Below are positions 1 through 21,602 of a DNA stretch of 64,000 nt, piece after piece (positions within the stretch are counted from its first letter, which is position 1; each line of letters starts with the position of its first letter). Location of the stretch: positions 20,781,292-20,845,291 of the forward strand of contig OZ316898.1 in the NCBI GenBank assembly GCA_973895155.1, written 5' to 3'. The notes beneath the pieces were generated by a model. The model was not told the origin of the DNA and made no database searches. It saw nothing but the letters and a program-made list of their open reading frames with translations. This DNA is from Marsupella aquatica. Taxonomy: Eukaryota; Plantae; Marchantiophyta. The position numbers were made by a program, and so were the translations under genes.

Positions 1-95
1 CTACTAGTGAGACACGGCATGCAGCAGCAGCGAGGTTGGTGGATTTACCAGCACGCCCTGCATTTGAGAGGACTAGGTTTAAACCTAGTGTTGTG

Positions 96-490
96 TCATT
101 GGATAATCGGAGTGGTATCTTCCGATTAGTTGGGCCTTCTGGAGTAGTATACCAGCCAAAGAGAGTGTTACTGGATACTGGTGCTCAGCCCTTGATGTTG
201 GGGAAGTCTGCCATACGTGGATTGGGATTGCGTCCAGAGGATTTGGAGGATTGTCCCTTTCCCATTCAGACTTCATTGGGGGGACCTACACCTACACAGC
301 ATATCACCAAGAGACCACTTGATTTGAGGATTCAGGAAGGTCATACCACAGATAGCTCACAGTTACAGGCGCGAGCTATTCTGACTAAGGCAGAGTCATA
401 TGATGTGTTGGTGGGATGTACAGTGCTCTACCCCATGGGATTTATTCTTGATTTTTGGGAGGAATCAGTGTCATATAGACCTGATTGGCA
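96..490 (+). pseudogene. Retropepsin-like aspartic protease domain
   Basis: VLLDTGAQ catalytic motif (~165-188) and downstream YDVLVG motif. Confidence 0.8.
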
Positions 491-878
491 GTCAAGAGAT
501 GCTCGATTGAGAAAATTGCCAATGAGATTTAGTGGACCTATGGGAGGCCCTAAATCCACACCATTGTCTTTGGCAGCATTCAGTGGTGTAATTGCTGGAC
601 CTAATGATTTGATTGAGGGTAATGTGCATGCAGCCGATGTTCCACCATTGGAGGAGTCTCATGAGGAGCACATCATGCGAGGATTACCTGTTGGCAGTGT
701 TGTGCCACCAGTGTGGGGCACTGCACAGGCCTTGCCACAGGGAGCAGCACGATTGGTACATGATGCATGGCGTCATGTTTTTACACCACAGTCAGGAGCA
801 GAGCAGTCTCTTGCAGATGGACCTGTGACTCTTTCACCATTGGATACCACTCCTATTGCTTGGCAATATCCACCGGAG

Positions 879-1830
879 GGTATTTGTTTGTTGGATCTTT
901 TTGGTGGGATTAGCACTGGATTGGCTGCTGTTCTTCAGGCAGGAATTCATGTGCGTCGTTATTTGTATGTGGAGATAGATGAGACAGCACGGAGGGTCTC
1001 ATTGTGACATGTGGCTATGTTGGTGGATAGATATCCACAGTTGCTGCCAGTGGATGCTGTTCGTGGTTATCAGCATGCACTACCTGTTGATATTTCATTG
1101 CTGGGGGCGGATCATCTACATCGTGTTGGCCCCATTGATTTGGTGATTGCTGGTTGGCCATGTCAGGGCCAATCTAGAGCTGGCATTGGGCATGGACTTC
1201 ATGATCCACGCTCTGCATTGTTGTGGGAGATGTTATGGGTGCTGCGTCATCTCTAGCTACATCAGACACAGTCTCCAACATACATTTTGGAGAATGTGTC
1301 ATTGTTAGGTGATGATCGTAGTCGGATTGTTGCCAGTGTTCACCAGGTGAGGTCTTGGATTGGACCTGTTGTGTTATTGGATGCTGCACGTGTGGGTTCT
1401 CATGCACATCGTCCACGCTTGTGGTGGACTAATTTGATCCCATGTGGGGTGCTAAAGCGCGCATTTGACAACATTCCACGCTCACCAGCCTTAGTGGTGG
1501 ATGATATTTTGGATCCAGGGCGTCGTGCACAGGGTGTGACCCAACCTGATAGACCTCCATTGGCAATGGTCAATGCAGTTGGGTGCCCACGTTGTGCATT
1601 ACCCACTCTTGTAAGCCACTCTGCTTCATATGCATTCAGAGCAGGTGGCCCTGGACTTGTATGGGACACAGCTCTCCAGCAGTTAGTGGAGCCTACTGCT
1701 GATGAGAGAGAGTGTGCTATGGGATTTTTGACTGGCACCACTGTAGTTGCCTCTGTGTCAGAGGGTTTGCGGCGCCAGGTTCTTGGTCAAGCAATGGACC
1801 TGAATTGTTTGACTTGGATTATCAGCTTGG
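879..1830 (+). pseudogene. C5-cytosine DNA methyltransferase domain, DNMT3-like, within the retroelement polyprotein (stops at 1005 and 1254)
   Basis: Motifs appear in canonical order: I LDLFGGISTG, II YVEID, IV IAGWPCQG, V GLHDPRSALLWE, VI ILENV, VIII AHRPRLWWTN, IX ERECAMGF, X RRQVLGQAMD. Confidence 0.92.
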
Positions 1831-2063
1831 GAGTAGCTGAACAGTTGCGGATGCGCTCTACTGGAATTACTGATTATCCCTTGGTGAGCTTGCGGTCCAC
1901 TGAGACAGTATTGACCATAGCTGGGGGCGAGCAGACAGTCCATGGACCTATGGCAGGATTGGCCAAGGCTGGACAGATTGTTGAGCAGGAAGGGACTACT
2001 CAATCTACTACTAAATAGCAATCATCGGCTATCTCTTCTACCCTACAAAGAGATATTAGGGAT

Positions 2064-3518
2064 TTGGTGGAGAGTTGGGAACCACAGCTTGGCCCTAAGT
2101 TAACAGGGGAGGAGAGACGTCGCATGCATCAATTCCTGAAGAGTTACTGGAATTGTTTTGCATTTAGCATGAAAGATTTGGGGACATTAAAGGGTCCTGG
2201 TATTCAGATTGAATTGGCTAGTGATGCGCCAATCTTTCATAGGCCATACCGTTATAATGACATGGAGAGAGCTCTGATTCAAAGCAGAACTCAAGATTTG
2301 TTGGAAGCTGGATTGGTGGAGATTTCATATGGGGAGTATGCATCTGCCATAGTGATGCCAGCCAAGAAGGATGTGCATGGCAACTACACAGATAGGCGCA
2401 TGTGTGGTGATTACAGACCTATTAATCGCCAGACAAAATCTGATCGATATGCCATGCCCACACCTGAGGAGATCTTTGATGTTGTGGGGCATGCAAAGGT
2501 TTTCAGTTCATTGGATCTGAGGGCAGGGTACCATCAGCTTCCAATTAGGCATGCTGACAGGACCAAGACAGCATTCTGGGGGATTGATTCTTATGGCAAA
2601 GATCGTTTGTATCAGTGGTTATTCTTACCATTTGGGTTGAAGAATGCACCAGCTGAGTTCCAGAGAGTCATGGATCGAATCCTTGCAGGTTTGGATTTTG
2701 TTAGATATTATATTGATGATATTTTGGTCTATTCTTCTACTATGGAAGAACATCAGCAGCACTTGCAGATTGTGTTGGAGAGATTGAGAGCACATGGGTT
2801 GAAGCTTCATCCTGGCAAATGTAAGTTCTTCCAAGACCAGATTGAGTATTTGGGCCACACTATATACCCAGGGGGATTGGGTGTACAGCAGACTAAAGTG
2901 GAGGCCATTACACAGATTCCTTGTCCTACTGATGTGAGTAGAGTTTGTGCATTCTTGGGATTGGCGAGCTACTACAGGAGGTATGTTAAAGGATTTAGCC
3001 AGCTTGCTAAACCTTTGACCATACTCACTAAGTTGGATCAGGAATGGATTTGGGGTGATGACCAGGAGCATGCCTTTCAGGAATTGAAGCAAAGGTTGGC
3101 ATCATCCCCTATTTTGAGAAGACCCATTTCAGGCAGACCATTTCAGCTACACACTGATTGGAGTGGAGTAGGACTTGGAGCAATGCTGACTCAGAAGGAT
3201 GATGAGGGGAATGAGTTTGTTGTGGCTTATGCCAGTAGATCAAACAATTTAGCAGAGGCTAAGTATAGCTCTTATGAGGGAGAGTGTTTGGCAGCAGTGT
3301 GGGCTGTTGCACATTTTTGTTGCTACTTGTTTGGTAACCCCTTCACCTTGATCACTGATCATCAGCCTCTTAAGTGGTTAATGGAGTCTGACAAGCTTAC
3401 AGGGAAGCTTGCACGATGGGCATTGTTGTTACAGGAGTATGATTTCCAGGTGGTGCATAGGCCTGGAAAAGTGAACTTGGATGCAGATGGATTAAGCCGC
3501 AATCCATGTACCAGTTAG
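2064..3518 (+). CDS. Reverse transcriptase + RNase H (Ty3/gypsy type) segment of pol
   Basis: RMCGDYRPIN, LDLRAGYHQ, LPFGLKNAP, YIDD; RNase H LHTDWS, EGECLA, TDHQPL, DADGLSR. Confidence 0.95.
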   Translation: MVESWEPQLGPKLTGEERRRMHQFLKSYWNCFAFSMKDLGTLKGPGIQIELASDAPIFHRPYRYNDMERALIQSRTQDLLEAGLVEISYGEYASAIVMPAKKDVHGNYTDRRMCGDYRPINRQTKSDRYAMPTPEEIFDVVGHAKVFSSLDLRAGYHQLPIRHADRTKTAFWGIDSYGKDRLYQWLFLPFGLKNAPAEFQRVMDRILAGLDFVRYYIDDILVYSSTMEEHQQHLQIVLERLRAHGLKLHPGKCKFFQDQIEYLGHTIYPGGLGVQQTKVEAITQIPCPTDVSRVCAFLGLASYYRRYVKGFSQLAKPLTILTKLDQEWIWGDDQEHAFQELKQRLASSPILRRPISGRPFQLHTDWSGVGLGAMLTQKDDEGNEFVVAYASRSNNLAEAKYSSYEGECLAAVWAVAHFCCYLFGNPFTLITDHQPLKWLMESDKLTGKLARWALLLQEYDFQVVHRPGKVNLDADGLSRNPCTS

Positions 3519-3699
3519 CAAGATGAGACTGGAGCCAGATGGCATGATGAGTCAGATAAGGAGATGGTGCCAGGATGGCATGCATCTGCCTTTCTTTGTT
3601 GGGTGCCAGCATACAGTGGATCTGTGGACTCTACCTCATTGGATGGAGTGGATGATGAGTCTTCAGATGTGGATGTTAGTGAGGTAACTACTGGACAGC

Positions 3700-5000
3700 A
3701 AGATATTCACAATGATGTGAGAGTGTTGGAATATCTGCGCAGTGGTTCTATTGTTGGCAGTGTTGATGCCAAGGAACGTGACAGGGTTCTACAGAGAGCC
3801 AAGAGGTTTCGATGGGAGGGAAACCATCTTTTGAGAGTATTGCATGATGGTAGAGTGTTGGTGGTCCCAAAACCATCACAGAGAGTACATTTGGTGCGAC
3901 ATGCGCACGAGGAGTTGGGTCACTTTGGTGTAAAGTGCACTTACAGCTTGCTGTAGACACAGTATTGGTGGTGTGGTATGCACACTCATGTCCAGCAGTT
4001 GATAGCTAAGTGTGTGGTATGTGATAGAGTGAGAGCATCATTTAATGCTCCCACTCCCTAGTTGCACCCGTTGCCGATCATGGATTTGGGATATCGTTGG
4101 AGTTTGGATTTTGCTGGTCCATTACCTCTTACCCAACGTCATAATCGGTATGTTTTGGTCATGGTGGAGCACTTCTCCAAGTGGATTGAGCTAGTGGCAT
4201 TGCCAGATAAAGCCAATGGAGGAGTTGCTGCTACATTTTTGGATCATGTACTCAGTCATTTTGGAGCACCAGCTGAGGTGTTGACTGATCAGGGAACTGA
4301 GTTCCGTGGAGAGTTTGAGAGTTTGTGTGAACAAGCTCTGATTGATCATCGTACTACCTCTCGTGATCATCCTAAGGCAGATGGATTAGTTGAGAGAGTT
4401 GTGCAAACTGTGAAGAGAGGATTGCGTAAGTATGGCTTGCAGGTTGGTCATCTGGGAGATTGGGATCTCCAGCTACCTTGGTTAGCTATGGGCTACCGTT
4501 TCAGTCGGCAAGCATCACTTGCATCCTTCTCACCTTACTTTTTGCTCTATGGTAGAGAGCCAGATTTACCAGCAGCTATTCGTCGTGATGCTGCATCAGT
4601 TGTGAACTTGGATGATCCTGATGTTTGGGTCAAGGTGTGTTCAGAGAGAGCACCGGTATTTCAGAGAGTGATGCCCATGGCTTTCGACAACCTTGTCATT
4701 GCCCAACATCGTGATACTTTGAGGTATGCCACTATTCGTGGAGGAGGTTATCGTGCAAGCATTCGGCGATTTCATCCTGGTGCTTATATTTATTTGCAGT
4801 AGACAGCACCCGAGACAGCACCCACGACACTTGATGTGACCGCAGACCGGACAATCTTACGTGTGCGTGAAGTGTTGCCTTCTGGTGTCCTGATGTTGGA
4901 GGGACGCGATGGTATGGTTTGGAAGGATCATGTGTGCAACTGTGCACCATGTCACCTTCCCAACATTGATGGTACAGTAGATCCAAGCTTGGCACATGTT
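3700..5000 (+). pseudogene. Integrase (HHCC zinc finger + rve core) with in-frame stops at 3954, 4059 and 4800
   Basis: HEELGH...CVVC zinc finger; SLDFAG, TDQGTEF and GLVERVVQ (D,D,E triad); SPYFLLYGR. Confidence 0.9.
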
Positions 5001-5004
5001 CGTA

Positions 5005-5145
5005 TGTATGTTGTGTGGATTTGCTCAGGGAGCAGCTACTATGTTGATTTGTGATAAGTGTTCTAGAGGATGACACATGTCATGTTTGACACCACCATTG
5101 CAGGTGATTCCTAGTGGATCATGGTTGTGTCCTCAGTGTTGGTGA
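5005..5145 (+). pseudogene. PHD finger (C4HC3) at the integrase C-terminus; not in the ORF track
   Basis: Manual translation gives CMLCGFAQGAATMLICDKCSRG*HMSCLTPPLQVIPSGSWLCPQCW*. The stop at 5071 occupies the conserved W/F position. A frame change near 5000 separates it from pol. Confidence 0.88.
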
Positions 5146-5309
5146 AGCCGACTAGTTATCATTTGTGTTCTTTTGGCAGATATGGATTGCAGGTAGGTGA
5201 TCGATGGGGCTCACTTGCACCCGGCCTCCTGATCTTCACACCTAAAAAGGTGTATATCAAACTTGTAAAACTCATGGCTAGCTAGAGTTAGGGGACCTTA
5301 CTCCCAGCT

Positions 5310-5320
5310 AGGGGGGCGAT
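5310..5320 (+). other. Polypurine tract of the DNMT element
   Basis: AGGGGGGCGAT lies immediately before the TG that starts the LTR. Confidence 0.6.
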
Positions 5321-5923
5321 TGTGGGTTTTGGACATGTGTGGACATGAGTTCCACTTGTATTCCATTCTCTTGTGTTTGTGATGTGGCAGTGTGACTATG
5401 TCTGGATGTATGTGACAAGCGATGTATGTTGTGTAGCGATATGTATGCGCACGATAGCTGTCACACCATTCTGAGTAGTGTAGTAGTATATCGTGCTATT
5501 AGAGTATGTATGTTTGGTATGAGTGCTATTGAAGCCGATAAGGTTCCGTCAGGTTTGTGTGAGAGGGTACTTCTTACTTGTGAGGCATTGAAAGGTCATC
5601 TTTCAATGTTGAGCCTTGGAGAGAGAGGAGCTTGAGTGGCTATGGTGGCTGTGAGCTCCGCTTGTGCAACGTGGATTCCTTGAGTAGTGCAAGGTGCGTT
5701 AGCTTGACATACGTGTGTGATCGGATTGGTGCGGGATCGATGGGGTATTGTTGACCGGGATTGTTGTGCCGATTGTATGGAGATTATTGTGGGTTTTGGA
5801 CATGTGTGGACATGAGTTCCACTTGTATTCCATTCTCTTGTGTTTGTGATGTGGCAGTGTGACTATGTCTGGATGTATGTGACAAGTGATGTATGTTGTG
5901 TAGCGATATGTATGCGCACGACA
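5321..5923 (+). repeat. 3' LTR (TG...CA) bounded by a 136-bp direct repeat (5321-5456 and 5788-5923)
   Basis: The two 136-bp copies differ at about 2 positions. The region starts TGTGGG after the PPT and ends CACGACA. Confidence 0.7.
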
Positions 5924-8217
5924 GATACTTTTGTCTTGAAGGACCACCGCCCCAAGGAGGACATCTACTTTGGGCAGTAGGAAGGTCACCTGATTGTCCC
6001 CCGGGATCACCATTGTACTCATGGTGTCACTACCTACAAAGAAGAAAGTGTAAAATGGATATCAAATGCCAAGCCACTCCAACAATTAAAGAAACAAAGT
6101 GAAAAAAATCTCAAACACATTTCTTTTAAGTACTCCTATGTGGAAGCAAAGCCTTTGCACAAAGATACTTTGTCATGCTCTTGGGTTTGTGCATTTTTGG
6201 CCAGTATACCCCCCTCCGATTGGACCCTTGCCTCCCATTGGCTAGCCTAAAATGCCTGAAATGATTAGGATTGTTGGATTTGAGATTGAAGGGAAAAAGT
6301 CTTGTACTATGCCCAAGTCTTGGAAATGATTGTTTTATCACAACAGTCTGTGCTATACTCTGGGTGTTTTTAGAATGGTCAGATCGCTAATTGGAGGGCC
6401 AAAATTACGTCTGGCGGCCCAATTTGGTCAAGGATTTATATTTCACGACCCCATTATAGCTTGGCAAGTGAGGACTATCCTCAAGGCAAAATGAGTCAAA
6501 GTTGGCCTTGATCTGCAGCTTTAAAACCAGCCAACCCAACCAAACAACCAATACACTAGTTTCAAGCTTACTTTTACTCAAAATCATCCATGATTTTTCC
6601 CACTTGTAGATCTTTGCAAGACCTTTCTATTGATCCCGAGGCCACATCGAACAGGGCAGAATTGGAGTCAGGGCGACCAAAAATCACACGGCCTGAAACA
6701 GGGGCTGAGTCCAAAAACTGAGGCCAACACTTGATGCTGCTCATAAATCTGGGCTTCGGGTTACCCGGAGTCCTTTGTACCCGGATTTGCAGTTTAAGAT
6801 GAACATGGAGTTATTGACAATGTTGCGTTGTGGCTGTGTCAGATGCCATGCTCAGAGCTAATGCAACAATATGAGTTTGACACTCAAGTTTACAAGAATA
6901 GAGCATTAGGGGCAGCAACGCCAATGTTTGCAAGAAGGGTGAATGAGCTCACACATCACATTACCAAAAAATTCACCAATAATTAGAAATAGAGATTCCA
7001 GTTTTTGTCACTATGCTCAGGTGGATGATTGACAATCTTGAATCAGGAAAGAAACTTACATTGTATTAATATGAAGCGCTATGTTTCATTTGTGGAAATG
7101 TTCACTCAAAAGTGTTTGGTTTGTCTGAGTCCATCTAATCATCAACCTCAGAGGGAGAATGCTCATGAACAAATGAGCAAGTTCTAAACTCTTTATCTGG
7201 TCGACTCTTTCTCCTTTTCATCATTTCTATGAATTTGTATGACATGTAGTCGTCACAATTGCTGCTAGACTTAGGGAAATTGGAATGCCCAAGACCAAGA
7301 CACTTTTGTTTTGTGTTCACGTGGAAGCCAACCCCCAAGTTTAATGTTTCATAATTTGTGCGAGCCTCTTAGCAATTTCAATTCTCTCTCTTCAGGTCAA
7401 TACAAAGCACCAACTACTGAGTTTACCATAATTGCTCTTTGACAAAACTATTAGTGTAGCTTGGTTAAAATGTTGGTCCATGACAGGTGCTGATGGTAAT
7501 TCTACTACTTGTGACATGCTCAAAATGTTGGCCCGAATGTTGGTTCATGACAGATGGTAATGTTATTCTACTACTTGTGGTATGCTAATTGTGCATACTT
7601 AAGTAACATTTGAGGTAACACAAATTGCTTACTCATAATAGAAGGATAACATTAATTCCACCACACCAAGTTCATAGATATTAAAGATATTCGTAAAGTC
7701 ATAGAATGTTCGATGAGTGGAGGGTAGGTTAATTAGCGTAAACTCAAGATGAACTAGTTCAAAAGTAACTCAGGTTAGTTTAGTCACGTGCAAAGCAAGT
7801 AAGACCAGGGCAAGAAACTTCTGTGGTGTGGAACAATTGGAAAAAAGTTTTTGAGTCGAGATGAAAGGTTGGCCCGGGTCAAGATTGTCGGTGCTTCAAG
7901 CACGTCAAGGGTGGGGATTCAATAGCAATGGCTGCAAAGGGAGCTTCAAAGTTGAATGGTAGTGCTCGATGCAAGCACCATGGAAGCAGTCTCAAAATGT
8001 ACTAAGAAGAAGGGTGTGTGCAAAGCAAAAGAGAAACAACTATCAAAGGTGAGTTGGGAAGTGACCAGAGTACACCCTAAAGTGCTCACAACGATCAAAG
8101 TGTTTGGTATTGGGCGGGGGCTTGTCGATTGAAGAAGAGCACCCTACAGCGCCATCAATTTTGACTAGCAAGGGTGTAGCTACAGCTAAGGAAAGTGACA
8201 AGAACCATCTGGGTATG

Positions 8218-10078
8218 TGTTAAACGCCAACTTCGACCTTGCGATTAATGGCCGTTTAACTACCTTCTCCTCAGTAATCTCATTTAAACGATTAACCGAC
8301 CTTCGAGAGGCGGCACTCCTTCTATCTCGACACAGTCCCCGTAAGTGAATCCGACCAAGTGCTCTTGAATGTCGAGTTTCGTCTTCCACTTCTTAGGCAC
8401 TTCAGCCTCGGCCAACACTAACCCCTCTTTATACACAATCTCAATGAACCCACACCACTCGCGGTAAGTGATCAAGCAAATCAGAATGTTCTCGTATAGT
8501 GACTGACGGGAAATAAGATGGGTGCCGATAGAACAGATCCACAGTTCCAGTGATCTTAAGGTAATCAAAGAGCAAGACTTGTCGTCACTGCTGTCTGCGT
8601 TCATGGTTTTTAGTAGCCGTGACCTGATTAAGTCCGGCTGTCCTTTGAATCAGCCTGCCTGGCAATTGATTTCCGGATTGTGTGGGTGACTATGACAGGG
8701 TTACCCTAAGCAAGTACCCCAGTATCATGTTTACCCTTGTATGATGGAGGTGTATGACGACCAGTGTATCGCCTTCAAAACACACTATCTCCAACCAGAC
8801 ACCGCTTCTCACTAGCTGTCTGTTCAACCTATACCTTGAGGCGCTGGCCCGTAAGGTTCTGGTTCGCAATGAGACGATATTCATTCATCGTTGCGATTAA
8901 CGAGTAACGACTTGCTGCATAAGGCAAATTCCTTCTCTCTCTCTCTCTCTGATTCGAAGTTCTCATTCACTGCTCAAATGCGGACTTCACTCTGTTGCAT
9001 TCATTCCAAGCTCTCTCTTTATACTCAAAGACTACTCAACTGAGTAGGGACACTATTACAAAATTGCTGGCATTCCTAAGGTGAGCGGAGCCCTACCTTG
9101 CCCCAGACTTCTAGCAAAAAGTGACACCGTGACTAGTACTTCAAAGCCCCTAAATACCTTTACCCCGCGTCTATCTTCGCCCGAGGCCTCTACTACTTCT
9201 TGGGGTGCGCTGATTACAGTTGGGCGACTCGCGCCTCCTCTTTGGTCTCCTCCGCTCATTCACCAAGAACGCTAACTAATGCCTACCAGAACGATGAGTG
9301 GAAGCCAAGAACTGCTGATTACTATGTCAAGAAGTTCTGTCTTCCTGGTTACTGAACTGTGCAACGGCCTCCTCGATTCCCTTTGGTTGCGCCTGATCCG
9401 GAAGCTTCCGGACTCCCGATTGTTAATCTTGCCATATGTGCCTCGACCTCTTGACTTCTGTCATCTTCCTTGGGGTTGCTCGGTTCGCCGGCCACGATTA
9501 CTTGTTTGGCGGTGATTAATCGCCACGTAATCCGCTGATCGTGGCTGTTCTCCCGTCTTAGCAGCAGATTCCATTTCTTCCGCATGACCTTTCTGCAGAG
9601 TTCCTCGATGGCCTCGCCAGTGGTGAATCGTTGGCGGAACTCTTCGCCCTTCATTCCGAACAATTGTTGCCCAGCCGCATCCCATACACGACAGCTTCCT
9701 TCTTTGATCCGAATAGTGAACATGAACATAGGCACTCCTTCGCCTAGCGACTTACACTCATGAGCTAACCGATTCCTGCTAACGGGGGTTCTTATATCCA
9801 CCCCCCTTGCCTTTTCTGTCGAGCTCTTGTGCCTAAGGCACATACTCTGCCATCTGCTAGTAGGCCATCGCAGCCTTCATAGCAGAACTCGACTCCTACA
9901 CGACCGTTAATCGAGATGATCGTCGCCTCCCCTACTTCCAGCCTTTCTGTCATCTCAACAAAATGAATAACCGCTGGTCCTTGCTTACTACTTCCTAAAT
10001 ACTCTTGGTTGACCTCTAGTTGACACTTCTAAACCTAAAAAAACTAAAATATCGCCGGTGTAATTTTTATCATTTACA
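8218..10078 (-). repeat. 3' LTR (1861 bp)
   Basis: Near-identical to 19740-21602; minus-strand TATAAA at 9023-9018 followed by (GA)n. Confidence 0.97.
9349..9953 (-). CDS. RPA70 C-terminal (DBD-C)-like zinc/OB-fold protein encoded in LTR U3, split over two frames (9953-9792 and 9843-9349)
   Basis: First frame: MTERLEVGEATIISINGRVGVEFCYEGCDGLLADGRVC..., resembling RPA70 ATI..I...NFCY.AC......DR.C. Second frame: PMFMFTIRI..GSCRVWDAAGQQLFGMKGEEF...KKWNLLLRRE, resembling RPA70 RYILQ.QI.D.T....TAF.EAGEEIMG.SA.DL. Confidence 0.62.
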
Positions 10079-10091
10079 TTCTCCTTTGCTT
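10079..10091 (-). other. Polypurine tract
   Basis: Minus-strand AAGCAAAGGAGAA directly precedes the TG of the 3' LTR. Confidence 0.75.
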
Positions 10092-10155
10092 ACCTACGGA
10101 TTCGTCCTCGATATCCGTTATGCTTGGTACACGTTGGGGACAAGTCGTCACCGGT

Positions 10156-13100
10156 CTACTTCACTCCCCTACCCTCACTAACATTGGTCATCCTGGTTGG
10201 AGTTATCGGAACTCTGTTCTGTGCCTTCAGCTTCCTCACTTCGGATTTTAAATCCAAAATTGATCGTTCCCTATCTTCCAGTTCTTGCGAAAGCTGATCG
10301 TTCTCTGCCCTCAACTGCTCGAGTTCCTTGGTCTGTTCAGTGATACTCTCCTCTCCAGTGCCCTGTAGCTTCACAGTGGCTTCTAACTCAACAATTTTCC
10401 GCTTATAGTTGTCTTCTGTGATTCTCCAACTCTCCGATACTTCATAGTGTTTTCGTCCGAGCTTCCCTAGTTGCTCCTCCAGTAGGGCTTGTTTTTTCAG
10501 ATCCTCCGTGGGGTCCCCTTTGGAATTCTTGACTGCGGTGGTTTGCTGGAGTTGGGTTTCCAGACCCTGGAGCTTTTTCTTCAATTCCTCCACCCTCTGG
10601 CGTTCCACTGCCCATTCCCTGGCTATTCTGCATTGCTTTGCTGCTTCATCCTTGAGTTGCGATTGCAATTCTTCTATTTCCTTGAGTTTCTCGTTATCCT
10701 CCTTTAGTTGTGAATTGATCTTTTGGCTATCTGCTTTGACTGTGGCTATGGCTGCTCCGATGGCCGTGACAACCTCCTGGTAATTTGTCGTTAGTCCCCC
10801 TGGACGTAACCCTTCTATCCCTAGGTAATCAGCCAATTCCTGCGTGGCTGCCTCCTCATGCCTCCAGCTTCTTCCTATGGTTGTCAGTCGATCCCTATCT
10901 GCTATTAGCTCTTTGTTACGATTTAGTAACTCCTTGATGGTCTCCTCGGCCTCCACTGCCCATTTATCTGCCTCCTCCTTCCCGGCTAAGTCCTCGGCGA
11001 TTTCTTCTTCTCGCTTGTTCCACTCCAAGTGTACTAGCGAACTCGTTATTCCCTGATAAATGGCTAATTGACTGGCAATTTGTCCGATCATGACTGTAAA
11101 GATGCTATCTTTTTGCATTGTGCTGATCTTCTCTTTCAATACTTCGATCCCCAGCTTCTCCCGTAATTGTTGTTCATCACCTTCTTTTACGGTTGAGAGG
11201 GCGTACTTGAGGTCGTCGTCATCAATGGGCGCTATCCTATAAGCCTTGGTTTCTGCTCGCATTTTGTCTTCCTCCGCTGGTTCTTGCCCCTCTGATTCTG
11301 ACTCCTTCTTGGTCGGGGTTGGATTGGTTTCTTTCCTCCTGGTGGTGCGCACTGGTGATGCGTCCCCCTCTTGCTCTTTGTTGGCTGCTTCCTCTTCTGG
11401 CAGGGTGCTCTTATGCTTCTTGGCTCCCTCACTCCTCGTCGGTTGGTAAATGGTAGCTGCTAATTCCGTTTTCCCCCCGTCTTCCCCTGTAAGCTGACTC
11501 TCGATTAGCACTTGGAGATGCGACTCGATCTCTACTGGCAGGTTGCTTTTACTGCTGATTAATCGTTTAGCTCGCTTGATGGCTGCATGGAACCCTTCGT
11601 GGAAAAAGGCCGACCAATCCTTTTGCTTCCCGTCTCCCTCCTCTACAATTTTAATCATAAATCGAGGATATTCTGATCTGGGCCTCTTCCAATGTAATGC
11701 ATGGGTTACAAATTCAAGCCTTTCCTTGATTTTCTCATTCGTGCAATGCTTGGTCGGATAGCCCCTGTTGTCGTCTACGTCCTTGTGTTGTGGAAATGTG
11801 GCAGGTTGCCAAGTTTTCCCCATCCGTTTCTTGATCTCTGCTCCTTGCTTTGGCAGTTTGAAAAGCTCCTAAAGCTTCCAAGGATTTGTCTTAATGACTT
11901 GGCCCCTACATATTCCTTGATTTTTGGTGGGTTTCCACGTGGTGATGAACTCGCTGTAGTCCTCTGCTTGTAGCTTCGTGGTTTGATTCCACTTTAGTTT
12001 CACGAATTTCTCCAATCCTTGTGTCTGTAGAAATTTCCTGTGTGCTTGTCCGCGCATAGTTTGCAATATCTGTGGCCCCATTCTCTCAAATTTCAACACA
12101 TGACTTGTTTCCCCTGGACTCGCCTTTGCGGCGCGCGTCGCCTTCCCGGTCCTACTTTTTGCTTCTTCTGCTGGTTCTTCTTCTTCTTCACTGTCGGATT
12201 CTTCCGGTTCTTCCTCCTCGGATTCGACTATTTTGCTCTTTCCCCTTACGGATCGCACCTCCCTCATCGTTGGCGGCTCAAGTTTAATCATTTTGGTTGT
12301 TCCCTTGCGGTTCCTCTTGGTCCTAGAAGGAGTTGTTTCCTCAATTATCGCTGTGGTGACCGCCGTGATCGCTTCCGTGGGATCCGGGTTGGCTAACAAT
12401 TCTGCCATGGTCAGCTTCCGTCTCCCTTCTCGTTGAAGTTCATTCAGCTGGTTTCCCTGTGGTTCTTCTGTCTGCTCGGCCGCTTGCTCCGTTGGTGCCT
12501 CGATTACTGATTCGGTTTGTGTCTCTAGGGTTGGCCCCTCGGCGGGCCCCTGCCCTTCCCTTTTGGCTGTAGTTTCCGAGAGATGGTCAGCCGTTGAAGG
12601 TCCCTGACTCACGATCTCTTGATCATCTTCGGGGTTGCTCCTTTCCCTTTCCGCTGACTCGGAAACTTCCAGCTCCATGCCCTCTGCTGTTGTCGGCCCT
12701 TCTCCCTCTGTGTGCGTGGGGGCTGGTGTCTCCTCCATCGCCGGGGTTTCGAGTAGTTTGCTGATAGTAACGCGCTTCCTCGGTTTATCGTCCTCAAACT
12801 CGTTTGATCGTTTCAGCTTCAAAGTCTTCATGCCCACCGGTAATGTGTAATGCCTATTACCAACCCTCGACCATTCGAATTTCACCTCGCGCTGATAGCC
12901 ACTCCACTCGGGGTTCTCTCGTAATCTCCTTGCCAGTCGGAAATAGGGTTTTTGGTTTAACAATTCTTTTGCGGATGATGGTGCTCGCCCTTTGGATTCT
13001 AGTGTATCCTGAACCTCTAGTATAACATGTAATTTTCCCATGGAGTAGTCCTCAATACATGGTATCGAGTTGGGTCTTATCAAAATCCGATCTGCAATCC

Positions 13101-13711
13101 ATGTGGAAAAGGGTCCGTGTGTACATCCTACGATTACTACTCTATAAGGAAACCTTCTCCTCCTCTCTTCCTGGCCTTTGGGTAATTTGTGCTTCCAATC
13201 GTGGATCTGAAAGATTTCAGATAGGTCCTCCTCCGTTAGAACCACTGACTTGATTTGACCTGATTCCGTTGGTTCGTTTGATGGAATGGTTCCGTTCACG
13301 TAATCCTCTAACGGGTACCCCTTGATCGTTAGTTCTCGTCCTTGTTCATTGGTGCTTTCTTCTCATCGTAGTGTGTCACGTGTGGTGGTTGCAACTAGCT
13401 TCTTTGCGTGTGCTAAGGGTCGTTCCTTGTTCTTGGCGGTGAGTGCCCCTCTGGTGGCTTCCGTAGATGCTTGATCGGGGGTCACGCCGATACAGGCTAC
13501 CATTCTAGTGGGTAGCTCGTACCCTTCTCCATCCGCTTGATTCTCGTTAGGTGGTGCTGTCGGTAGTTGATAGCTGTCGTCGTCCTCGTTGAGCGCCGGT
13601 ACCGTATCGGAGTCGTTGCTGACTTTGCTTTCCCTTGGATAGTCGTTAACCGTATCCTCTACTTCTCGTAAGTACACGTCATTCCTTATGTGGTATGACT
13701 TCATCTTATTC
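10156..13711 (-). pseudogene. Long accessory frame 3' of integrase: acidic low-complexity region, plant-transposon-protein-like domain, C-terminal coiled coil
   Basis: ORFs 13363-13803, 11869-13299 and 10156-11823 share one frame, separated by a single TGA (13365-13363) and a single TAG (11871-11869). It contains the motif EF.....GICRGQVIK....L.ELFKLP..G and heptad-rich E/K/Q/L sequence. Confidence 0.7.
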
Positions 13712-16700
13712 CGTTCACCCGCTGTTGCTCGCTCCCATCCTGGTTGGTAATTTTGAAGGTTCCGTTTCCCCACGCCTTGAGGACGGTAAAGGGTCCTTCC
13801 CATTTAAGTCTCAACTTTCCTTTTTTTATTCGTGCCCGCTTTCGGCACCACAGTACTAATTCCCCGTCCGTGAACGTGGTTACCTCCCGTTGATCGTCTA
13901 TTCGTCGCTTGCGTTGTCCTTGTACATACTCTAATCGCTCTTTGGCCCTTCTCCGGGTTTCGGTAACCTCCAATAGTGCTTTTAACCGTCTAGTTAAACA
14001 CAGGTTCTGATTTATGTCGTATCCCGCTGCGATTTGCAAATTGGGTAATTCGTAGTCTGTCGGCATACGGGCCTCAACTCCAAACATTAATTGAAAAGGG
14101 GTGTGGCCCGTGGTTACCTTATATGCCGTGCGGAATGCCCATACTGCCGCCGGCAGCTGAACGTCCCAATCGTTTTACTGTTCGTTAACCACTTTCCGTA
14201 AAACGTTGAGTAAGACTTTGTTTGTTGACTCTGCTTGCCCGTTACACTGAGGGTAATAGGGAGTCGAAAACCGATGGCTTATATGGTAATTATCCGTCAG
14301 TTCCTGGATAACCTTGTTCAAAAAATGTGAACCTTGATCGCTCACTAGCTCACCTGGTAATCCGTATCTCGTGATGATGTTCTGGTACAAGAACTTGGAT
14401 GTTACTCGGCAGTGTTCTCCCGAGTTGCGACTACTTCCACCCATTTTGTGGTATATTCTGTTGCTGCTAAAATATACTGGTTCTGACTATATCTGGAAGA
14501 TGGAGTGATGGGTCCTATGAAATCTAGTCCCCATTTCTGAAAAATATAAGGGGCGATTATAGGCCTGAACTCCATGTTTTCCTTTATAGGTCCTGTACGC
14601 TGACACAGGTCGCAAGTTTTTACAAACTCCCGAGTGTCTTTATGGACAGTTGCCCACCAACGTCCTTGCTGAAGAATCTTCCTCAGGGTGATCTCGGTGC
14701 CGAAATGTCCCCCTCCTAGTCCTTCATGTGCCGCGATTAAGGCTTCTGGCCGTTCTTCCTCCGGAACTACTCTACATAGTATGTCATCGGGCGGCCCCTG
14801 GTAATAAAGCACGTGGTTGATCAAGGTGTAGGGCCTTGCCTTATAGGCGTAGACCTTCCTTTCCTTACTGGACAACCCCTCGGGGAATACCGCTGTGCGT
14901 AAATACCTTTCTAATGCTGGTTTGTCATCCAAGGTCACTAGATTTACAGGATGCCTTTCCTTGGCGTCTTGAAATAGCTCCATATCCGGTAATTGATCGT
15001 CTTCTTCCTTGCCTGTCTCTCCTGATTCGAGTCTACTCAAATAATCGGGTATGACATGGGTTTTCCTGGGTTTATAAATGGTGGTGTAATCAAACTCAGC
15101 TAATAACAAAATCCATCTTGCAATTCGGCCCGACAGCTGTGGTTTGTTTACTAAGTTGACCAAGGCATTATGATCTACATAGAATATGAATCGATTCCCA
15201 AGTAAATAATGCCTAAATTTCTTTACTGCAAATATCATGGCTAATGCTTCCCTCTCAGTCGTGGTGTAGTTCCTTTCATGCACGTTTAACAGCCTACTGG
15301 CATAGTATACTGGTAAATCGATACCTTGTTCTCCCTTCTGTGCTAACACTGCCCCCACCGCCACTAGAGAAGCATCTGTATGTAGATGGAACTCCCTCTT
15401 CCAATCTGGCTCCTTGAGTATGGGTGCATGGCACAACCGGTCCTTGATTTCTTCAAATGCTTTCTGACAGTCGTCGTCCCAAGTGAACGTTTGATGGTTA
15501 CCCGTTAATCGTGCCAACGGGGCACTGATTTGGGAGTAACTTTTGATGTAACGACGATAGAAACCTCCACTTCCCAGGAACCTTCTGACTTGAGTTGCAC
15601 TATTGGGGACTGGCATCTCTTTAATGATTTTTATCTTATCTGGGTCTAGTAACAAGCCCTGTTTACAAACTATGTGTCCTAATATCTTGCCCGATGGTAC
15701 AAAGAAGGTGCACTTATCAGGGTTCAGGCTGACTCCCCCTTCCCTACATCTTAAGAGGCATAATCTGAGATGACCTATATGTTGCTCTTCCTCTCCGTAT
15801 ATGGTGAAGTCATCTAGGAAGATTTGCATAAATTGATTCAAATACTCATGAAATAACATCATCATTAATCGTTGGAATGTACTAGGCCCATTGCATAATC
15901 CAAAGGGTAATACGAGACACTGGAAAGCGCCCCATTCCGTAATGAAAGTGGTCAGCTCCCTTGCTTCTGTTGCTAACCGGACCTGACTGTACCCGCTGTA
16001 CCCATCTAAAAATGAATAAGCTGACTTTCCTGCTACCACATCCAGAACTGCTTCTAGAAAGGGTACCGGAAAAGGGTCTTTTATGGTCGCTGCGTTTAAT
16101 TTTCTGAAATCAATGCAGACTCTTAACTTCCCATTTTTCTTAGGTACTACGACTATCGGGGATAGCCACGTATAACGCTTAACAGGTTCAATGAATTTGG
16201 CATCAAGGAGCCTTTGGATTTCTTCTTTTACCTTTTCTGCATAGTTGGGGTTCATCCTATATTGTTGTGTCTGCACCGGTACTGATCCTGGTACAAGTCG
16301 GATTTGATGTACGCCAATTGACTCTGGAACTCCCTTTAACTCCGTGTAATCCCAGGCAAAAACATCTCGGAATTCGGCGAGTAGGGTAACAAGTTCCTCT
16401 TTGAGCTCGGGGGAAAGGTGTTTCCCTATCTTTACTTCTCGTGGTCGTTCAGTGTCACTCAAATCGACCTTCTGAATGTGCTCTTCCTCGGTGGCACTCC
16501 ATCCCACCACCTTCTCTGCTAGATCCTGCAAGGTGGTCTGTGCTTCTTCCTCCTTTAATGAGCACTCCTGAATGCCTTGCGGGTCTATGTGTTTAAACAG
16601 ATCGTTTCGTAAATCATGATCCATTTTTTTTTTGGTCATTCCTTGCATCTTGTCGAGCTTGACTATTTCCATATCTGAAATTGGGACTAAGTCTGGACGG

Positions 16701-18814
16701 CATTTTAAATAAGTCTCTTCTTCATCCTCATTCAACCCCTCTGCCCAGTTCAAGGTACAGACTCTGGCCATAGGTGGTACACCGTCCTCGATAGCCTTGG
16801 TTCTGATCTTGAAAGTCTCTCCTCCGTGTTCTATTTTTATATAATCCTTCTCTTCCCCCCAATGTTGTTTTACTTTGGCTTGTCTTAGCCAAGGTCGTCC
16901 TAACAACATGGGTTGTCCTCGGGTGGAATCTGCTTCTCTCAAAACTACCACTCCTAAATTGTACTTGATGCCTGAAATCAGCATTGGTAAGTCTGGCACG
17001 TAACCTAGTGGGTGACAGCTGCTTTGATCGGCCATTATTAAATTAAAAGGGGCTGGTAAGAGTTTGACTCTGCCTAGCAGTTTGTAGGTCTGCTCACTCA
17101 TGAGGTTTACGGCTGACCCTCCATCCAGCAATACGTTCTTTAGTTTGATGCCCCTAAGGCTGATCTGTACTACGGCTCCTTTGTCGATTAGGGGAATCTT
17201 CCCAGCTTGGTACAATGGTACTCCGGGTAATGTGGTAGGACTAATTCTGCCCCCCAACCGTCTCATTACTGCTTCCTTGCACTGTGGTGCTAACTGGAAC
17301 AGTTCCCCGACAGTGATGTCGACTCTGGTCTTCGCGATGAGTTGCACTAGCTTATCCACTATTCACTGGTTTGCTTCGGCAGGGTTATTCGGTGGTTCTT
17401 CGTCTCATGGGAGTTGTCCCGTTTCTTGATCGAATCCCCCCATCGTCACTCCCTCCTCTAGAATTTCCGTATCTGTCTTTGCGTAAGGTTCTGAACGCAT
17501 TAATCGTTCAGGTCGTGGCAAGGTCTCGTTCCGCTGTTTGTGGCGAATTTCATCCGCCATTTCTCGGGTGGTTGCATCCATTTGGCTCCAATCGAATCCT
17601 CCCTCCGTCTCCGGGGAATTGGTTTGGGTTGAGTTCTCTGGCTGCCCTTGAGATCTTGTCACCACGTATGTTGACACCTGCACAGTATTCACAGGTGCTG
17701 GGGCTTTCCCCGCTATTTCTTCTTTTTCTTTCATGTGCTTCATCCATAATTCACAATCGGGCCCCCTGATGTGGCCAGTTAGTCGACAGTAATAGCAAAT
17801 CGGTGGGTATTTAGTACCACCATCCTTATAGGGCCTTCGGTTTGCATTACGATCCGGATTGTAATATCCCTGACTACTCTCCATCCTATCCCCATCTTGT
17901 TTGCTTGTTCCTACCTGATTTACACCTAGGCTAGGTTTCTTTTTAAAAGGATTCTGGTTGCATTCCTGAGTAGTATGTCCAGGCCTCATATGTATTTCAC
18001 AGAATTTACGAGTACTAAGCTCACCTCGCTCTCGGTTTTCCTTGACTTCTACCTTAGAAGGTTCTGTTTTTCGGTTAACCCTCTCTTCATCCTTATTGCT
18101 CTCGTTCTTTTCCTGGTTAAGCATTTGAGTAATGCCTTCTAGCCGTATTAATCTTTTCTCGTATTCGTCAGCATTAGAAGTGGGATTTTGTTCTACCACT
18201 GTGACTAGACTTCCCTTCACAGCCTTTCTCATCCAGCTAATTCGTTGCCCGTCGGACGGTTTGTTAGTTAATCGCCTCATTGTTACCTTTAACCGTCCAA
18301 TATAGTTCTGTACTGGTTCTCCTTTCTTCAGAGTCATGTTTTGCAGAATGCTATACAAATCAGATTCTTCCTTAGCCCTTCTGTAATGATCTAAGAATTC
18401 TTTTGAAAACTCAGGCCAAGTTTTGAAATGGTCAGCTGGGTATTGAGTGTACCATACAAAAGCCTCCTTGTCCAGTGAGCTGGGAAATAGCTCTAATCAG
18501 GCTGTGTCGTTCTGTTCGTGGTTAGCTCTGAGCATTTCTTCGAAATGTGCTAAGTGGGTATCGGCATCTTCATCAGGTGCTCCCTTGAACATGGGTATTT
18601 TAACCCTTCTGGTAGGAGTCGATCTCGAACTAATGCCAACTCCTTGGTGGGTTTTAAGTCGTTCCATGGCTTCTTCCAGGGGTTCTTCGACCTTATCTTG
18701 AGCCCTTGAAGTCTCAATTCGTTCTTCGACCTCAAGTCTGAGTCTGCTTTCTTGGAAAGGTTCGAACTCCTCTGCCATTTCCCCTTCGTTAGGATTGATG
18801 GGCGTCTTGCCCAT
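13701..18814 (-). pseudogene. gag-pol polyprotein (Retrotrans_gag, two Zn knuckles, protease, RT, RNase H, integrase) with premature stops and two 1-nt frameshifts
   Basis: LFPSSL..EAFVWY gag; CEIH....H....C and CYYC....H.....C; LLDGGS; [12 protein letters not shown]; HTDAS; HEG..GGHF..CDLC; WGLDF, SDQG, QAES. TGA at 18497, 17405 and 17363, TAA at 14175, frameshifts near 14405 and 13710. Confidence 0.93.
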
Positions 18815-19036
18815 TTATCTTCTGGGTTAGCAAAGCCTTTTCTCTGCCTTCAAGCAATATACTCAACGATCAGGTCTTTCTTTACAAGGGTGATGTCAAG
18901 ATCTTATTACTCGTTACTTTTCACAAAAATGGAGACCTTCTACTGTCTCCTTTACTTGACTAATGCTATAACTTTTGTTAATCAGTTCCTCTCTCTCCTT
19001 TGCTCAACTGCGGCTATGCCCTCTGCGAAATGACTC

Positions 19037-19351
19037 CTATTCGCTTAAACTAGGAGTGCAGGCTTCTGGAGCCATGAGTTCCTCGTTAAAGCACATCGTT
19101 AATAACTGGTTTAACATAGAAAACTCAAAACTGTCATGTTGACTCCACATCATACATCTTGGGCAAGCTCCTGCGGTTTCCTCTAGTTTAGAACTTAATT
19201 TCCTAGCGATTCTGCCTATCTGGAATGCTATCACAACCGGGTACTCATTTCGATTCCAATGACACCATTCTAAGAGTTTTCTAAGGTCCTCCTTTCTCTT
19301 GGGTAGGCGGTACTGCGTGTAGCCTTGAGGTAATCGATCACTTGGTGGCAT
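19037..19351 (-). CDS. Small leader ORF B (104 aa, CPRC motif), unknown function
   Basis: ATG-initiated ORF between PBS and gag; overlaps ORF A by 14 nt. Confidence 0.35.
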   Translation of the reverse strand: MPPSDRLPQGYTQYRLPKRKEDLRKLLEWCHWNRNEYPVVIAFQIGRIARKLSSKLEETAGACPRCMMWSQHDSFEFSMLNQLLTMCFNEELMAPEACTPSLSE

Positions 19352-19619
19352 GGTTGCTGCTGTAAACGCTGCTCCGAACAGAGGATTGCAAATGAATTGC
19401 TCGCCTCCTCACGTTCCAGGTTCCTCCATGCGTTTCTCGAAGTACCAACTCTGTGTGTGTGGGCGTGGTGTAAGCAATTATCATAACATCGCCTTCTCGT
19501 GCCCTACTTCTCCCGCTGGCTAGTATCAAGTGCTCTTTCTCGTTCAGTGTTGCTATGATTGCTGCTTCGGCATCCTTCTCAAAATAGAACATCGTCCAGA
19601 ACTCCTTCGGCGAGTTCAT
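19338..19619 (-). CDS. Small leader ORF A (93 aa), unknown function
   Basis: ATG-initiated sense ORF about 100 nt downstream of the PBS, with globular-looking composition. Confidence 0.35.
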   Translation of the reverse strand: MNSPKEFWTMFYFEKDAEAAIIATLNEKEHLILASGRSRAREGDVMIIAYTTPTHTELVLRETHGGTWNVRRRAIHLQSSVRSSVYSSNHATK

Positions 19620-19715
19620 GTCACCCGTTCGCCTTTCTGGATTTGCGCGTTTCTCTCTTGGTTCGGACTGCTGGTCGTAGCAGTTGCTCCTCTTTTGGAA
19701 CCCTCAACGAGGCGT

Positions 19716-19733
19716 TCCCCAGTATGGTCGCCA
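19716..19733 (-). other. Primer-binding site, probably tRNA-Arg
   Basis: Minus-strand TGGCGACCATACTGGGGA follows the LTR end and a T-run; it resembles the tRNA-Arg PBS (TGGCGAC....CTGGGGA) of Tat/Ogre-type elements. Confidence 0.7.
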
Positions 19734-19739
19734 AAAAAA

Positions 19740-21602
19740 TGTTAAACGCCAACTTTGACCTTGCGATTAATGGCCGTTTAACTACCTTCTCCTCAGTAAT
19801 CTCGTTTAAACGATTAACCGACCTTCGAGAGGCGGCACTCCTATCTCGACACAGTCCCCGTAAGTGAATCCGACCAAGTGCTCTTGAATGTCGAGTTCTG
19901 TCTTCCACTTCTTAGGCACTTCAGCCTCGGCCAACACTAACCCCTCTCTATACACAATCTCAATTATGAACCCACACCACTCGCGGTAAGTGATCAAGCA
20001 AATCAGAATGTTCTCGTATAGTGACTGACGGGAAATAAGATGGGTGCCGATAGAACAGATCCACAGTTCCAGTGATCTTAAGGTAATCAAGGAGCAAGAC
20101 TTGTCGTCACTGCTGTCTGCGTTCATGGTTTTTAGTAGCCGTGACCTGATTAAGTCCGGCTGTCCTTTGAATCAGCCTGCCTGGCAATTGATTTCCGGAT
20201 TGTGTGGGTGACTATGACAGGGTTACCCTAAGCAAGTACCCCAGTATCATGTTTACCCTTGTATGATGGAGGTGTATGACGACCAGTGTATCGCCTTCAA
20301 AACACACTATCTCCAACCAGACACCGCTTCTCACTAGCTGTCTGTTCAACCTATACCTTGAGGCGCTGGCCCGTAAGGTTCTGGTTCGCAATGAGACGAT
20401 ATTCATTCATCGTTGCGATTAACGAGTAACGACTTGCTGCATAAGGCAAATTCCTTCTCTCTCTCTCTCTCTCTGATTCGAAGTTCTCATTCACTGCTCA
20501 AATGTGGACTTCACTCTGTTGCATTCATTCCAAGCTCTCTCTTTATACTCAAAGACTACTCAACTGAGTAGGGACACTATTACAAAATTGCTGGCATTCC
20601 TAAGGTGAGCGGAGCCCTACCTTGCCCCAGACTTCTAGCAAAAAGTGACACCGTGACTAGTACTTCAAAGCCCCTAAATACCTTTACCCCGCGTCTATCT
20701 TCGCCCGAGGCCTCTACTACTTCTTGGGGTGCGCTGATTACAGTTGGGCGACTCGCGCCTCCTCTTTGGTCTCCTCCGCTCATTCACCAAGAACGCTAAC
20801 TAATGCCTACCAGAACGATGAGTGGAAGCCAAGAACTGCTGATTACTATGTCAAGAAGTTCTGTCTTCCTGGTTACTGAACTGTGCAACGGCCTCCTCGA
20901 TTCCCTTTGGTTGCGCCTGATCCGGAAGCTTCCGGACTCCCGATTGTTAATCTTGCCATATGTGCCTCGACCTCTTGACTTCTGTCATCTTCCTTGGGGT
21001 TGCTCGGTTCGCCGGCCATGATTACTTGTTTGGCGGTGATTAATCGCCACGTAATCCGCTGATCGTGGCTGTTCTCTCGTCTTAGCAGCAGATTCCATTT
21101 CTTCCGCATGACCTTTCTGCAGAGTTCCTCGATGGCCTCGCCAGTGGTGAATCGTTGGCGGAACTCTTCGCCCTTCATTCCGAACAATTGTTGCCCAGCC
21201 GCATCCCATACACGACAGCTTCCTTCTTTGATCCGAATAGTGAACATGAACATAGGCACTCCTTCGCCTAGCGACTTACACTCATGAGCTAACCGATTCC
21301 TGCTAACGGGGGTTCTTATATCCACCCCCCTTGCCTTTTCTGTCGAGCTCTTGTGCCTAAGGCACATACTCTGCCATCTGCTAGTAGGCCATCGCAGCCT
21401 TCATAGCAGAACTCGACTCCTACACGACCGTTAATCGAGATGATCGTCGCCTCCCCTACTTCCAGCCTTTCTGTCATCTCAACAAAATGAATAACCGCTG
21501 GTCCTTGCTTACTACTTCCTAAATACTCTTGGTTGACCTCTAGTTGACACTTCTAAACCTAAAAAAACTAAAATATCGTCGGTGTAATTTTTATCGTTTA
21601 CA
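19740..21602 (-). repeat. 5' LTR (1863 bp)
   Basis: Near-identical to 8218-10078; TATAAA on the minus strand at 20547-20542. Confidence 0.97.
20873..21477 (-). CDS. Second copy of the LTR-encoded RPA70-C-like OB-fold gene
   Basis: Same two-frame arrangement as 9349-9953; one V/M difference in the 164-aa ORF. Confidence 0.6.

Follow-up and report, generated by a model that had tools for sequence, protein, structure and literature searches.

A decayed Ty3/gypsy retrotransposon in a liverwort carries a DNMT3-like methyltransferase domain ahead of a conserved, likely leaky stop codon

Plants fight transposons chiefly through cytosine methylation, and the reason for a transposon to carry a methylation writer itself is a question that has been standing since 2018. 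The known carriers are the alga Klebsormidium nitens and dinoflagellates. The locus described here raises the question for a land plant. It lies in a stretch of 64,000 nucleotides from the liverwort Marsupella aquatica (contig OZ316898.1), called the window below, for which an initial annotation had reported a complete DNMT3-like cytosine methyltransferase in frame between the aspartic protease and the reverse transcriptase of an LTR retrotransposon.

Translation of positions 3-4805 in frame +3 gave one retroelement frame with seven stops. The Pfam matches follow the order DNA_methylase, RVT_1, RNase H and integrase, and a PHD finger that the initial annotation did not contain (PF00628, E 9e-12) lies in a shifted frame. 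The gag region and the 5' end of the element are outside the window. The features, all on the forward strand, are as follows.

84..527, +: aspartic protease domain, DTG at 174-182 (translation and own profile)
879..1853, +: DNMT3-like C5 cytosine methyltransferase domain, non-permuted (PF00145), with stops at 1005-1007 and 1254-1256
2016..2024, +: conserved in-frame stop with its context TAG CAA TCA, likely a programmed readthrough site at the boundary of Gag-PR-DNMT and Pol (homologous stops, motif fit)
2112..2879, +: reverse transcriptase with YIDD (PF00078, E 1.7e-33)
3051..3506, +: RNase H (PF17917/PF17919)
3873..4800, +: DDE integrase, consisting of zinc finger, core and C-terminal part, with decay stops inside (PF17921, PF00665)
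5005..5139, +: PHD finger at the end of Pol (PF00628, E 8.9e-12), out of frame here
5310..5319, +: polypurine-tract-like run directly before the first B repeat (sequence; the same run in loci L002, L051, L055 and L059)
5319..5456, +: terminal repeat B, first copy (99% to the second copy, 73% to B of L055)
5459..5785, +: terminal repeat A, 3' copy, flanked by the B copies, separated from the first of them by a 2-nt spacer and opening with TGTC
5786..5923, +: terminal repeat B, second copy; the element ends with GACA, and the 4 nt that follow are predicted to be one half of a target duplication

The order agrees with the PR-RT-RH-INT arrangement of Ty3/gypsy elements with a DDE integrase. A Pfam search of the element part within the window gave an rve integrase and no match to a tyrosine recombinase, and neither the window part nor the full-length relatives P0325, P0327 and P0328 matched DAM or a chromodomain. 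The window's own protease obtained no Pfam score; its relatives P0022, P0218 and P0329 match Asp_protease_2 or gag-asp_proteas. Unlike in the window copy, the PHD finger is in frame at the tails of related loci.

The surroundings of the element are mixed. On the minus strand at 8218-21400 lies another Ty3/gypsy element, a young one whose long repeats are near-identical. It has no DNMT match in pol, two long extra open reading frames that have no Pfam matches (10156-11868 and 11869-13362) and a CpG observed/expected ratio of 0.78. Host genes for a 5MP/BZW HEAT protein and an F-box/LRR protein are found at 29700-30700 and 45500-47100; the best named match of the F-box/LRR protein is from the leafy liverwort Calypogeia fissa (73%). 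Long inverted repeats at 57655-58737 and at 40323-40810 / 58757-59229 are probably MITE-like or DNA-transposon remnants.

The methyltransferase assignment was well supported. Positions 879-1853 match PF00145 with E 7e-9 (36 bits, cut-off 22), and the motifs stand in canonical order, i.e., LFGG (897-908), PCQ (1158-1166), ENV (1290-1298), AHRPRLWWTN (1404-1433), then ERECAMGF and RRQVLGQ, which bears out the reported location between protease and reverse transcriptase of a Ty3/gypsy element. The DNMT3 pattern, not permuted as in DRM, was likewise upheld, since all PDB sequences matched at E<=1e-3 (29/29) were DNMT3A, DNMT3B or DNMT3C. The profile ranking against the PDB gave DNMT3A (E 4e-28), DRM2 (1e-13), HhaI (1e-9) and DNMT2 (5e-6).

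For the fold, the stop-free relative L002 was modeled from a 65-row alignment with a pLDDT of 94.5 (31 with single-sequence folding). The best Foldseek match of this model was DNMT3 (TM 0.72/0.82), and in a comparison with 48,161 representatives DNMT3B reached a Z score of 29.0 with an rmsd of 2.6 across 278 residues. Other Z scores were 27.8 for DNMT3A, 24.7 for M.MpeI, 22.3 for HhaI, 21.9 for DNMT2, 16.9 for MET1 and 9.9 for DRM2, which aligns over only 127 residues, as expected for a permuted enzyme. Among solved methyltransferases, DNMT3 thus appears the closest by both sequence and modeled fold. The catalytic loop reads PCQGQSRAG in the window and PCNDLSIVN in DNMT3A, so CG specificity should not be assumed for the enzyme of the element.

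The claim that the domain is complete and intact did not hold for the window copy, which has in-frame stops at 1005-1007 and 1254-1256. The first of these positions is a sense codon in 67 of 68 related loci, the remaining one being a gap, and the second is a sense codon in 55/74; both stops are therefore decay. The stop at 1254-1256 is also missing from ~98% of contig depth in run X1, which contains the window's flank exactly. Besides the stop at 2016-2018, four further stops and frameshifts interrupt the rest of the element.

At the family level the domain is intronless and non-permuted, and its key residues are kept. In the full-length domains of the PR-DNMT-RT architecture, the catalytic cysteine is present in 41/42 (one gap), the motif VI glutamate in 42/42, and the two motif VIII arginines in 40/42 and 42/42, respectively. 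Comparison of the window domain with 38 loci gave a median pN of 0.225, a median pS of 0.675 and a dN/dS of 0.155 (35/38 loci with finite dS, synonymous sites near saturation), and the reverse transcriptase gave 0.068 in the equivalent comparison. Near-identical dead loci compared among themselves had values of 0.54 for DNMT and 0.45 for RT. The domain is under purifying selection, with its catalytic residues kept across the family, and neutral evolution, which the initial annotation had named as a ground for refutation, was not what we found.

The window copy itself bears marks of host methylation. Among 40 listed sites where the window has T/A and the run-contig majority C/G (drawn from two listings, one of which covers 40 of 450 rows), 20 are CHG, 14 CHH and 6 CG, against a background of 16% CHG, 48% CHH and 36% CG. 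The CHG excess is consistent with a silenced copy that the host has methylated at CHG, and we infer that the copy is dead, its C-to-T decay biased to CHG as in a transposon methylated by its host. The CpG observed/expected ratio is 0.32 in the element, 0.78 in the neighbouring gypsy element and 0.53 in the remainder of the window; six Sphagnum-like copies have 0.48-0.58 and their flanks 0.25-0.74. CpG depletion was rejected as a sign of self-methylation, since it is strong in the window element and not in the Sphagnum-like copies relative to their flanks. In run X1 the summed contig depth is ~150,000-350,000 over the element against 321 in the flank bin, with a ~1000-fold drop past the second B repeat, and in run X4 it is 2,500-16,000 against 18; these values hint at a very abundant family, although summed contig depth is not copy number. 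No RNA run is among the 16 runs listed for the element, which speaks neither for nor against expression.

How the enzyme would be expressed depends on the stop at 2016-2018. The methyltransferase does lie in the same frame as the reverse transcriptase, as originally proposed, but this TAG intervenes and splits Gag-PR-DNMT from RT-RH-INT-PHD with the frame unchanged. The homologous position is a stop in 50 of 53 junctions (36 TAG, 14 TAA), GAG in one and unalignable in two, and never encodes glutamine. The junctions are those of the window and of 52 of the 80 metagenome loci; 51 are distinct, and most of the 52 loci are near-copies belonging to a single family. They were counted from DNA because the linker does not align, the tblastn count at the junction residue being 12/36 stops.

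Several observations separate this stop from decay. It is kept across three dissimilar linkers, i.e., those of the window, of the main Sphagnum-like family and of L074/L077/L079, and CAA directly follows it in 47/50. Decay hotspots elsewhere have at most ~40% stops and mostly retain the sense codon. For 2016-2018, the host-like runs list no majority difference, and the loose ends of divergent contigs retain the stop. At the protein level, nine Marchantia open reading frames terminate 72-74 aa past the domain, and a clade of Gag-PR-DNMT proteins terminates 80-165 residues past it. On this evidence, the stop reads as a family feature and not as decay. A second apparently conserved stop, in the RNaseH-integrase linker, was rejected as a glutamine decay hotspot.

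The enzyme is thus not simply part of one polyprotein with the reverse transcriptase, since the conserved stop closes the Gag-PR-DNMT frame, and it likely travels with Gag and not with Pol. The type I readthrough signal of tobamoviruses is UAG-CAR-YYA (PMC3542737). The window (TAG-CAA-TCA) and L079 (TAA-CAA-TTA) fit this motif, and in the window no in-frame ATG occurs within 35 codons after the stop. In the main Sphagnum-like family the stop is followed by CAA-CCC-ATG, a partial fit (stop-CAA-YY) with an ATG two codons on, so that re-initiation could occur there. Downstream of the stop, RNA folding gave no significant structure (z -0.7 to -1.0). For the bryophyte branch, these contexts suggest that the enzyme would be made together with Gag and protease, and Pol through readthrough. 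Relatives without the stop exist (Closterium P0203/P0329, P0191, P0325 and P0328), and Gag-level dosage is therefore not required for this kind of element.

A single chimeric copy was the other ground on which the initial annotation would have been withdrawn, and the range of relatives excludes it. The domain search gave 46 long and 314 short relatives (120 of the 314 listed). Named relatives among the matches listed are from Marchantia polymorpha (up to 71% identity across the domain), M. paleacea, Riccia sorocarpa, Calypogeia fissa and three Sphagnum species, and more distant matches are from Closterium, Klebsormidium nitens, Scenedesmus and Cymbomonas. The Klebsormidium protein GAQ93235.1 (P0218) has 38% identity (E 6.5e-50) and shares the PR-DNMT order. 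From 146 metagenome stretches found, 80 were kept as loci, and in every one of these that is long enough the order is GAG-PR-DNMT-RT-RH-INT-PHD; L002 has 90% identity to a Sphagnum protein. The loci were fished via the DNMT domain, and therefore the number of sister copies lacking it cannot be read from them.

Our own profiles separated two architectures. Type II has the order PR-DNMT-RT and its named members are streptophytes, whereas type I has RT-RH-DNMT-INT-PHD and its named members are chlorophytes. Trees of the reverse transcriptase (52 rows, quick search; support 99) and of the DNMT domain (37 hand-picked rows; 100/99) both split the two types, with fragments below ~230 aa and ~290 aa left out, respectively. 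The DNMT tree placed the window with Marchantia, Calypogeia and Sphagnum-like copies (100/100). When rooted with phage enzymes, the only outgroup, type I falls among type II on weak branches (86/74, 93/63); the Klebsormidium domain is homologous and on the window's side of the 100/99 branch, and under this outgroup forms no supported clade with the window. One capture followed by a move would seem likelier than two captures.

Members of the type I set (P0033-P0320, including P0245/P0333 from Scenedesmus and P0044 from Cymbomonas) encode PR-RT-RH-DNMT-INT-PHD in a single open reading frame. Their domains have EC in place of PC in 40/80, and the cysteine is invariant. Separately, the P0351 / P0353 / P0296 cluster contains a 4,799-aa polyprotein of the non-LTR type with OTU, RT, PHD, PCIF1_WW, a related DNMT and RNase H. 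The PCIF1_WW domain is presumably adenine-methyltransferase-like, and this second methyltransferase and the DNMT clade may have come into a LINE-like element jointly.

The viral contigs yielded no relative with the window as query, and an alignment query retrieved only phage methyltransferases at 23-32% identity. In prokaryote genomes, 41 pattern matches included no relative, and the labelling of P0093 and P0379 as bacterial was accordingly read as contamination. A recent bacterial donor of the domain is unsupported for the same reason. As judged from these sequences, the family belongs to liverworts and peat mosses, and because it spans Closterium, liverworts and Sphagnum, the capture appears not to be confined to the K. 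nitens lineage.

The designation as an LTR retrotransposon was partly right. Elements of the family start with TGTCATG and end with CACGACA (TG...CA), and 4-bp target duplications flank relatives in 5/5 independent insertions with both ends (L013, L037, L051, L055/L059 as one insertion, and L068), which indicates insertion by a DDE integrase. The 3' end is a B-A-B split repeat and not a plain LTR, and the 139-nt direct repeat in the window is part of this block. Loci L051, L055 and L059 have the complete A-coding-B-A-B layout, in which the coding region is preceded by A alone and followed by B-A-B. Pairs of A1 and A2 are present in these loci and in L002, and the 5' A copy of the window element is expected upstream of the window. 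The canonical layout of two matching LTRs flanking the coding region was not found in the relatives. No TGG-start primer-binding site occurs right after the 5' repeat A in 17 loci, and no significant self-priming fold was found at the 5' repeat end (z about -1).

The repeats also show some variation. At the inner B-A junction, in the window (5451-5462) and in L002, L015 and L059, a right end, 2 nt and a left end are joined (CA-GC-TG), which resembles a joined-end cDNA junction. An A-coding-B form whose target duplications are intact is seen in loci L013, L037 and L068. The 3' flank is the same in L037 and L046, yet one has B and the other B-A-B; the short form would thus stem from B-B recombination or assembly collapse.

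With moderate confidence, we read the locus as a decayed copy of a bryophyte Ty3/gypsy element in which a leaky stop closes a Gag-PR-DNMT frame, so that the enzyme would be made at Gag levels, be packaged and likely methylate the cDNA before integration. This builds on the observed domain order, conserved stop and context, repeat layout, ends and duplications, catalytic residues, purifying selection and DNMT3 fold; the functional steps inferred from them would run as follows. A transcript starting in repeat A1 would yield abundant Gag-PR-DNMT and, through readthrough, a minor Gag-PR-DNMT-RT-RH-INT-PHD product. The protease would free the enzyme within the particle, where it could methylate double-stranded cDNA before integration. 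The integrase, steered by the PHD finger, would then insert a pre-marked copy, and this pre-methylated copy would read as self or stay quiet.

Some of the same evidence could accommodate an active enzyme that works outside the particle, in the nucleus, where its methylation in trans would fall on the insertion site, on sister copies or on chromatin of the host and would damp its own family. High dosage also follows from a position before the stop, the PHD finger suggests engagement with chromatin, and host-level effects were raised in PMC5890265. We consider this unlikely: fusion to Gag and protease argues for packaging, the PHD finger sits on the integrase and not on the methyltransferase, and the accessible text of PMC5890265 describes the Klebsormidium methylome as plant-typical. 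A slimmer chance is given to the idea that the stop merely ends ORF1 and that Pol comes from spliced or internally started RNA or from re-initiation, in which case the enzyme would still go with Gag. The ATG two codons past the stop in most Sphagnum-like copies, the CAA-CCC context of most loci and the lack of a detectable stimulatory RNA structure point that way, but both open reading frames are in frame in all intact linkers, CAA is kept after the stop across dissimilar linkers, and the window and L079 match CAR-YYA exactly without such an ATG.

Retention of the domain as a nucleic-acid-binding or RNA-methylating module, e.g., for priming or packaging, and not as a DNA marker, is improbable. 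It would touch on priming, which the lack of a TGG-type site after the 5' repeat A in 17 loci leaves unexplained, and the related Klebsormidium enzyme was inactive on yeast DNA (PMC5890265). Against it, all catalytic residues are conserved and the domain is closest to the DNA-specific DNMT3, ahead of DNMT2 (E 4e-28 vs 5e-6; Z 29.0 vs 21.9). It is scarcely credible that the domain is a one-off chimera, an assembly artefact or a neutral passenger, as the broken window copy and the near-copy dN/dS of 0.54 might suggest. In these dead copies RT has a similar value (0.45), and the domain gives 0.16 when compared over deep distances; moreover, the same order occurs in named genomes of several plant lineages, and the two architectures separate in the DNMT tree as they do in the RT tree.

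Packaging with Gag through a leaky stop thus remains the preferred reading, and the conserved stop then predicts many enzyme molecules per particle, unlike reverse transcriptase or integrase. More tentatively, and as a possibility that we would not yet call probable, an ancient green-plant lineage of elements may have kept a DNMT3-like enzyme from algae to land plants and moved it between two polyprotein positions, with a leaky stop of the plant-virus kind in the bryophyte branch loading particles at capsid stoichiometry, copies integrating in methylated form and a DDE integrase opening joined-end cDNA. If true, the opening of joined-end cDNA by a DDE integrase would be a replication route between those of LTR and DIRS elements. 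Marchantia polymorpha is a genetic model among land plants, and it has uninterrupted Gag-PR-DNMT open reading frames annotated as hypothetical (Mp4g09160, Mp5g06330, Mp5g06860, MpVg00370 and MpVg00540), which makes the question testable in a land plant. In bryophytes, such open reading frames could also distort the number of DNA methyltransferase genes counted as belonging to the host.

The initial annotation knew of no characterised family in an embryophyte. We found no land-plant description of such elements in the literature covered, which excludes subscription papers and repeat databases, but the kind itself is published as KnitGypsy-Dnmt3 of Klebsormidium nitens (PMC5890265). The accessible text of that paper places the acquisition in the K. 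nitens lineage and the DNMT in the Pol ORF, and it already proposes co-packaging and cDNA methylation. The KnitGypsy-Dnmt3 enzyme produced no methylation in yeast, a result that its authors deem inconclusive, whereas a retrotransposon DNMT3 of Symbiodinium methylated CG there (PMC5890265). Marchantia, PHD fingers and readthrough are not mentioned in the main text as available to us. Accessible parts of bioRxiv 10.64898/2026.05.21.726589 call the element Gypsy-DNMT3 of streptophytes; there and in PMC12344493, such elements are assigned to 'streptophytes' with land plants unnamed, and the trees may include some.

The window family shares with KnitGypsy-Dnmt3 the Ty3/gypsy domains, a non-permuted DNMT3-like domain, purifying selection and DIRS-like A-coding-B-A-B repeats, of which the window shows the 3' B-A-B and L051, L055 and L059 the whole layout (PMC5890265). 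It differs in its land-plant host and in the conserved stop, found at 50/53 junctions, between DNMT and RT, which as described share one Pol ORF in KnitGypsy-Dnmt3. SymbioDIRS-Dnmt3 of Symbiodinium also has a DNMT3-type domain and A-coding-B-A-B repeats, but is described with a DIRS tyrosine recombinase (PMC5890265), whereas the window family has a DDE integrase and 4-bp target duplications. The EpiLTRs of Cymbomonas and Euglena (bioRxiv 10.64898/2026.05.21.726589) are likewise retrotransposons of the LTR type that combine a DNMT with a chromatin reader; those reported carry DAM, a chromodomain and a DNMT4-sister DNMT, and the window element has a DNMT3-like domain and a PHD finger with no DAM or chromodomain match. 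In gammaretroviruses the stop is described as separating gag from pol, whereas in the window element it comes after protease and DNMT. The tobamovirus type I signal, as given in PMC3542737, is fitted exactly in the window and, with UAA, in L079, whereas most Sphagnum-like copies have only stop-CAA-YY. Rather than a new kind, the element is a variant form of the Klebsormidium family already published, to which it adds a land-plant range, a Gag-linked enzyme by way of a conserved stop, integrase-made duplications on split repeats and a second architecture.
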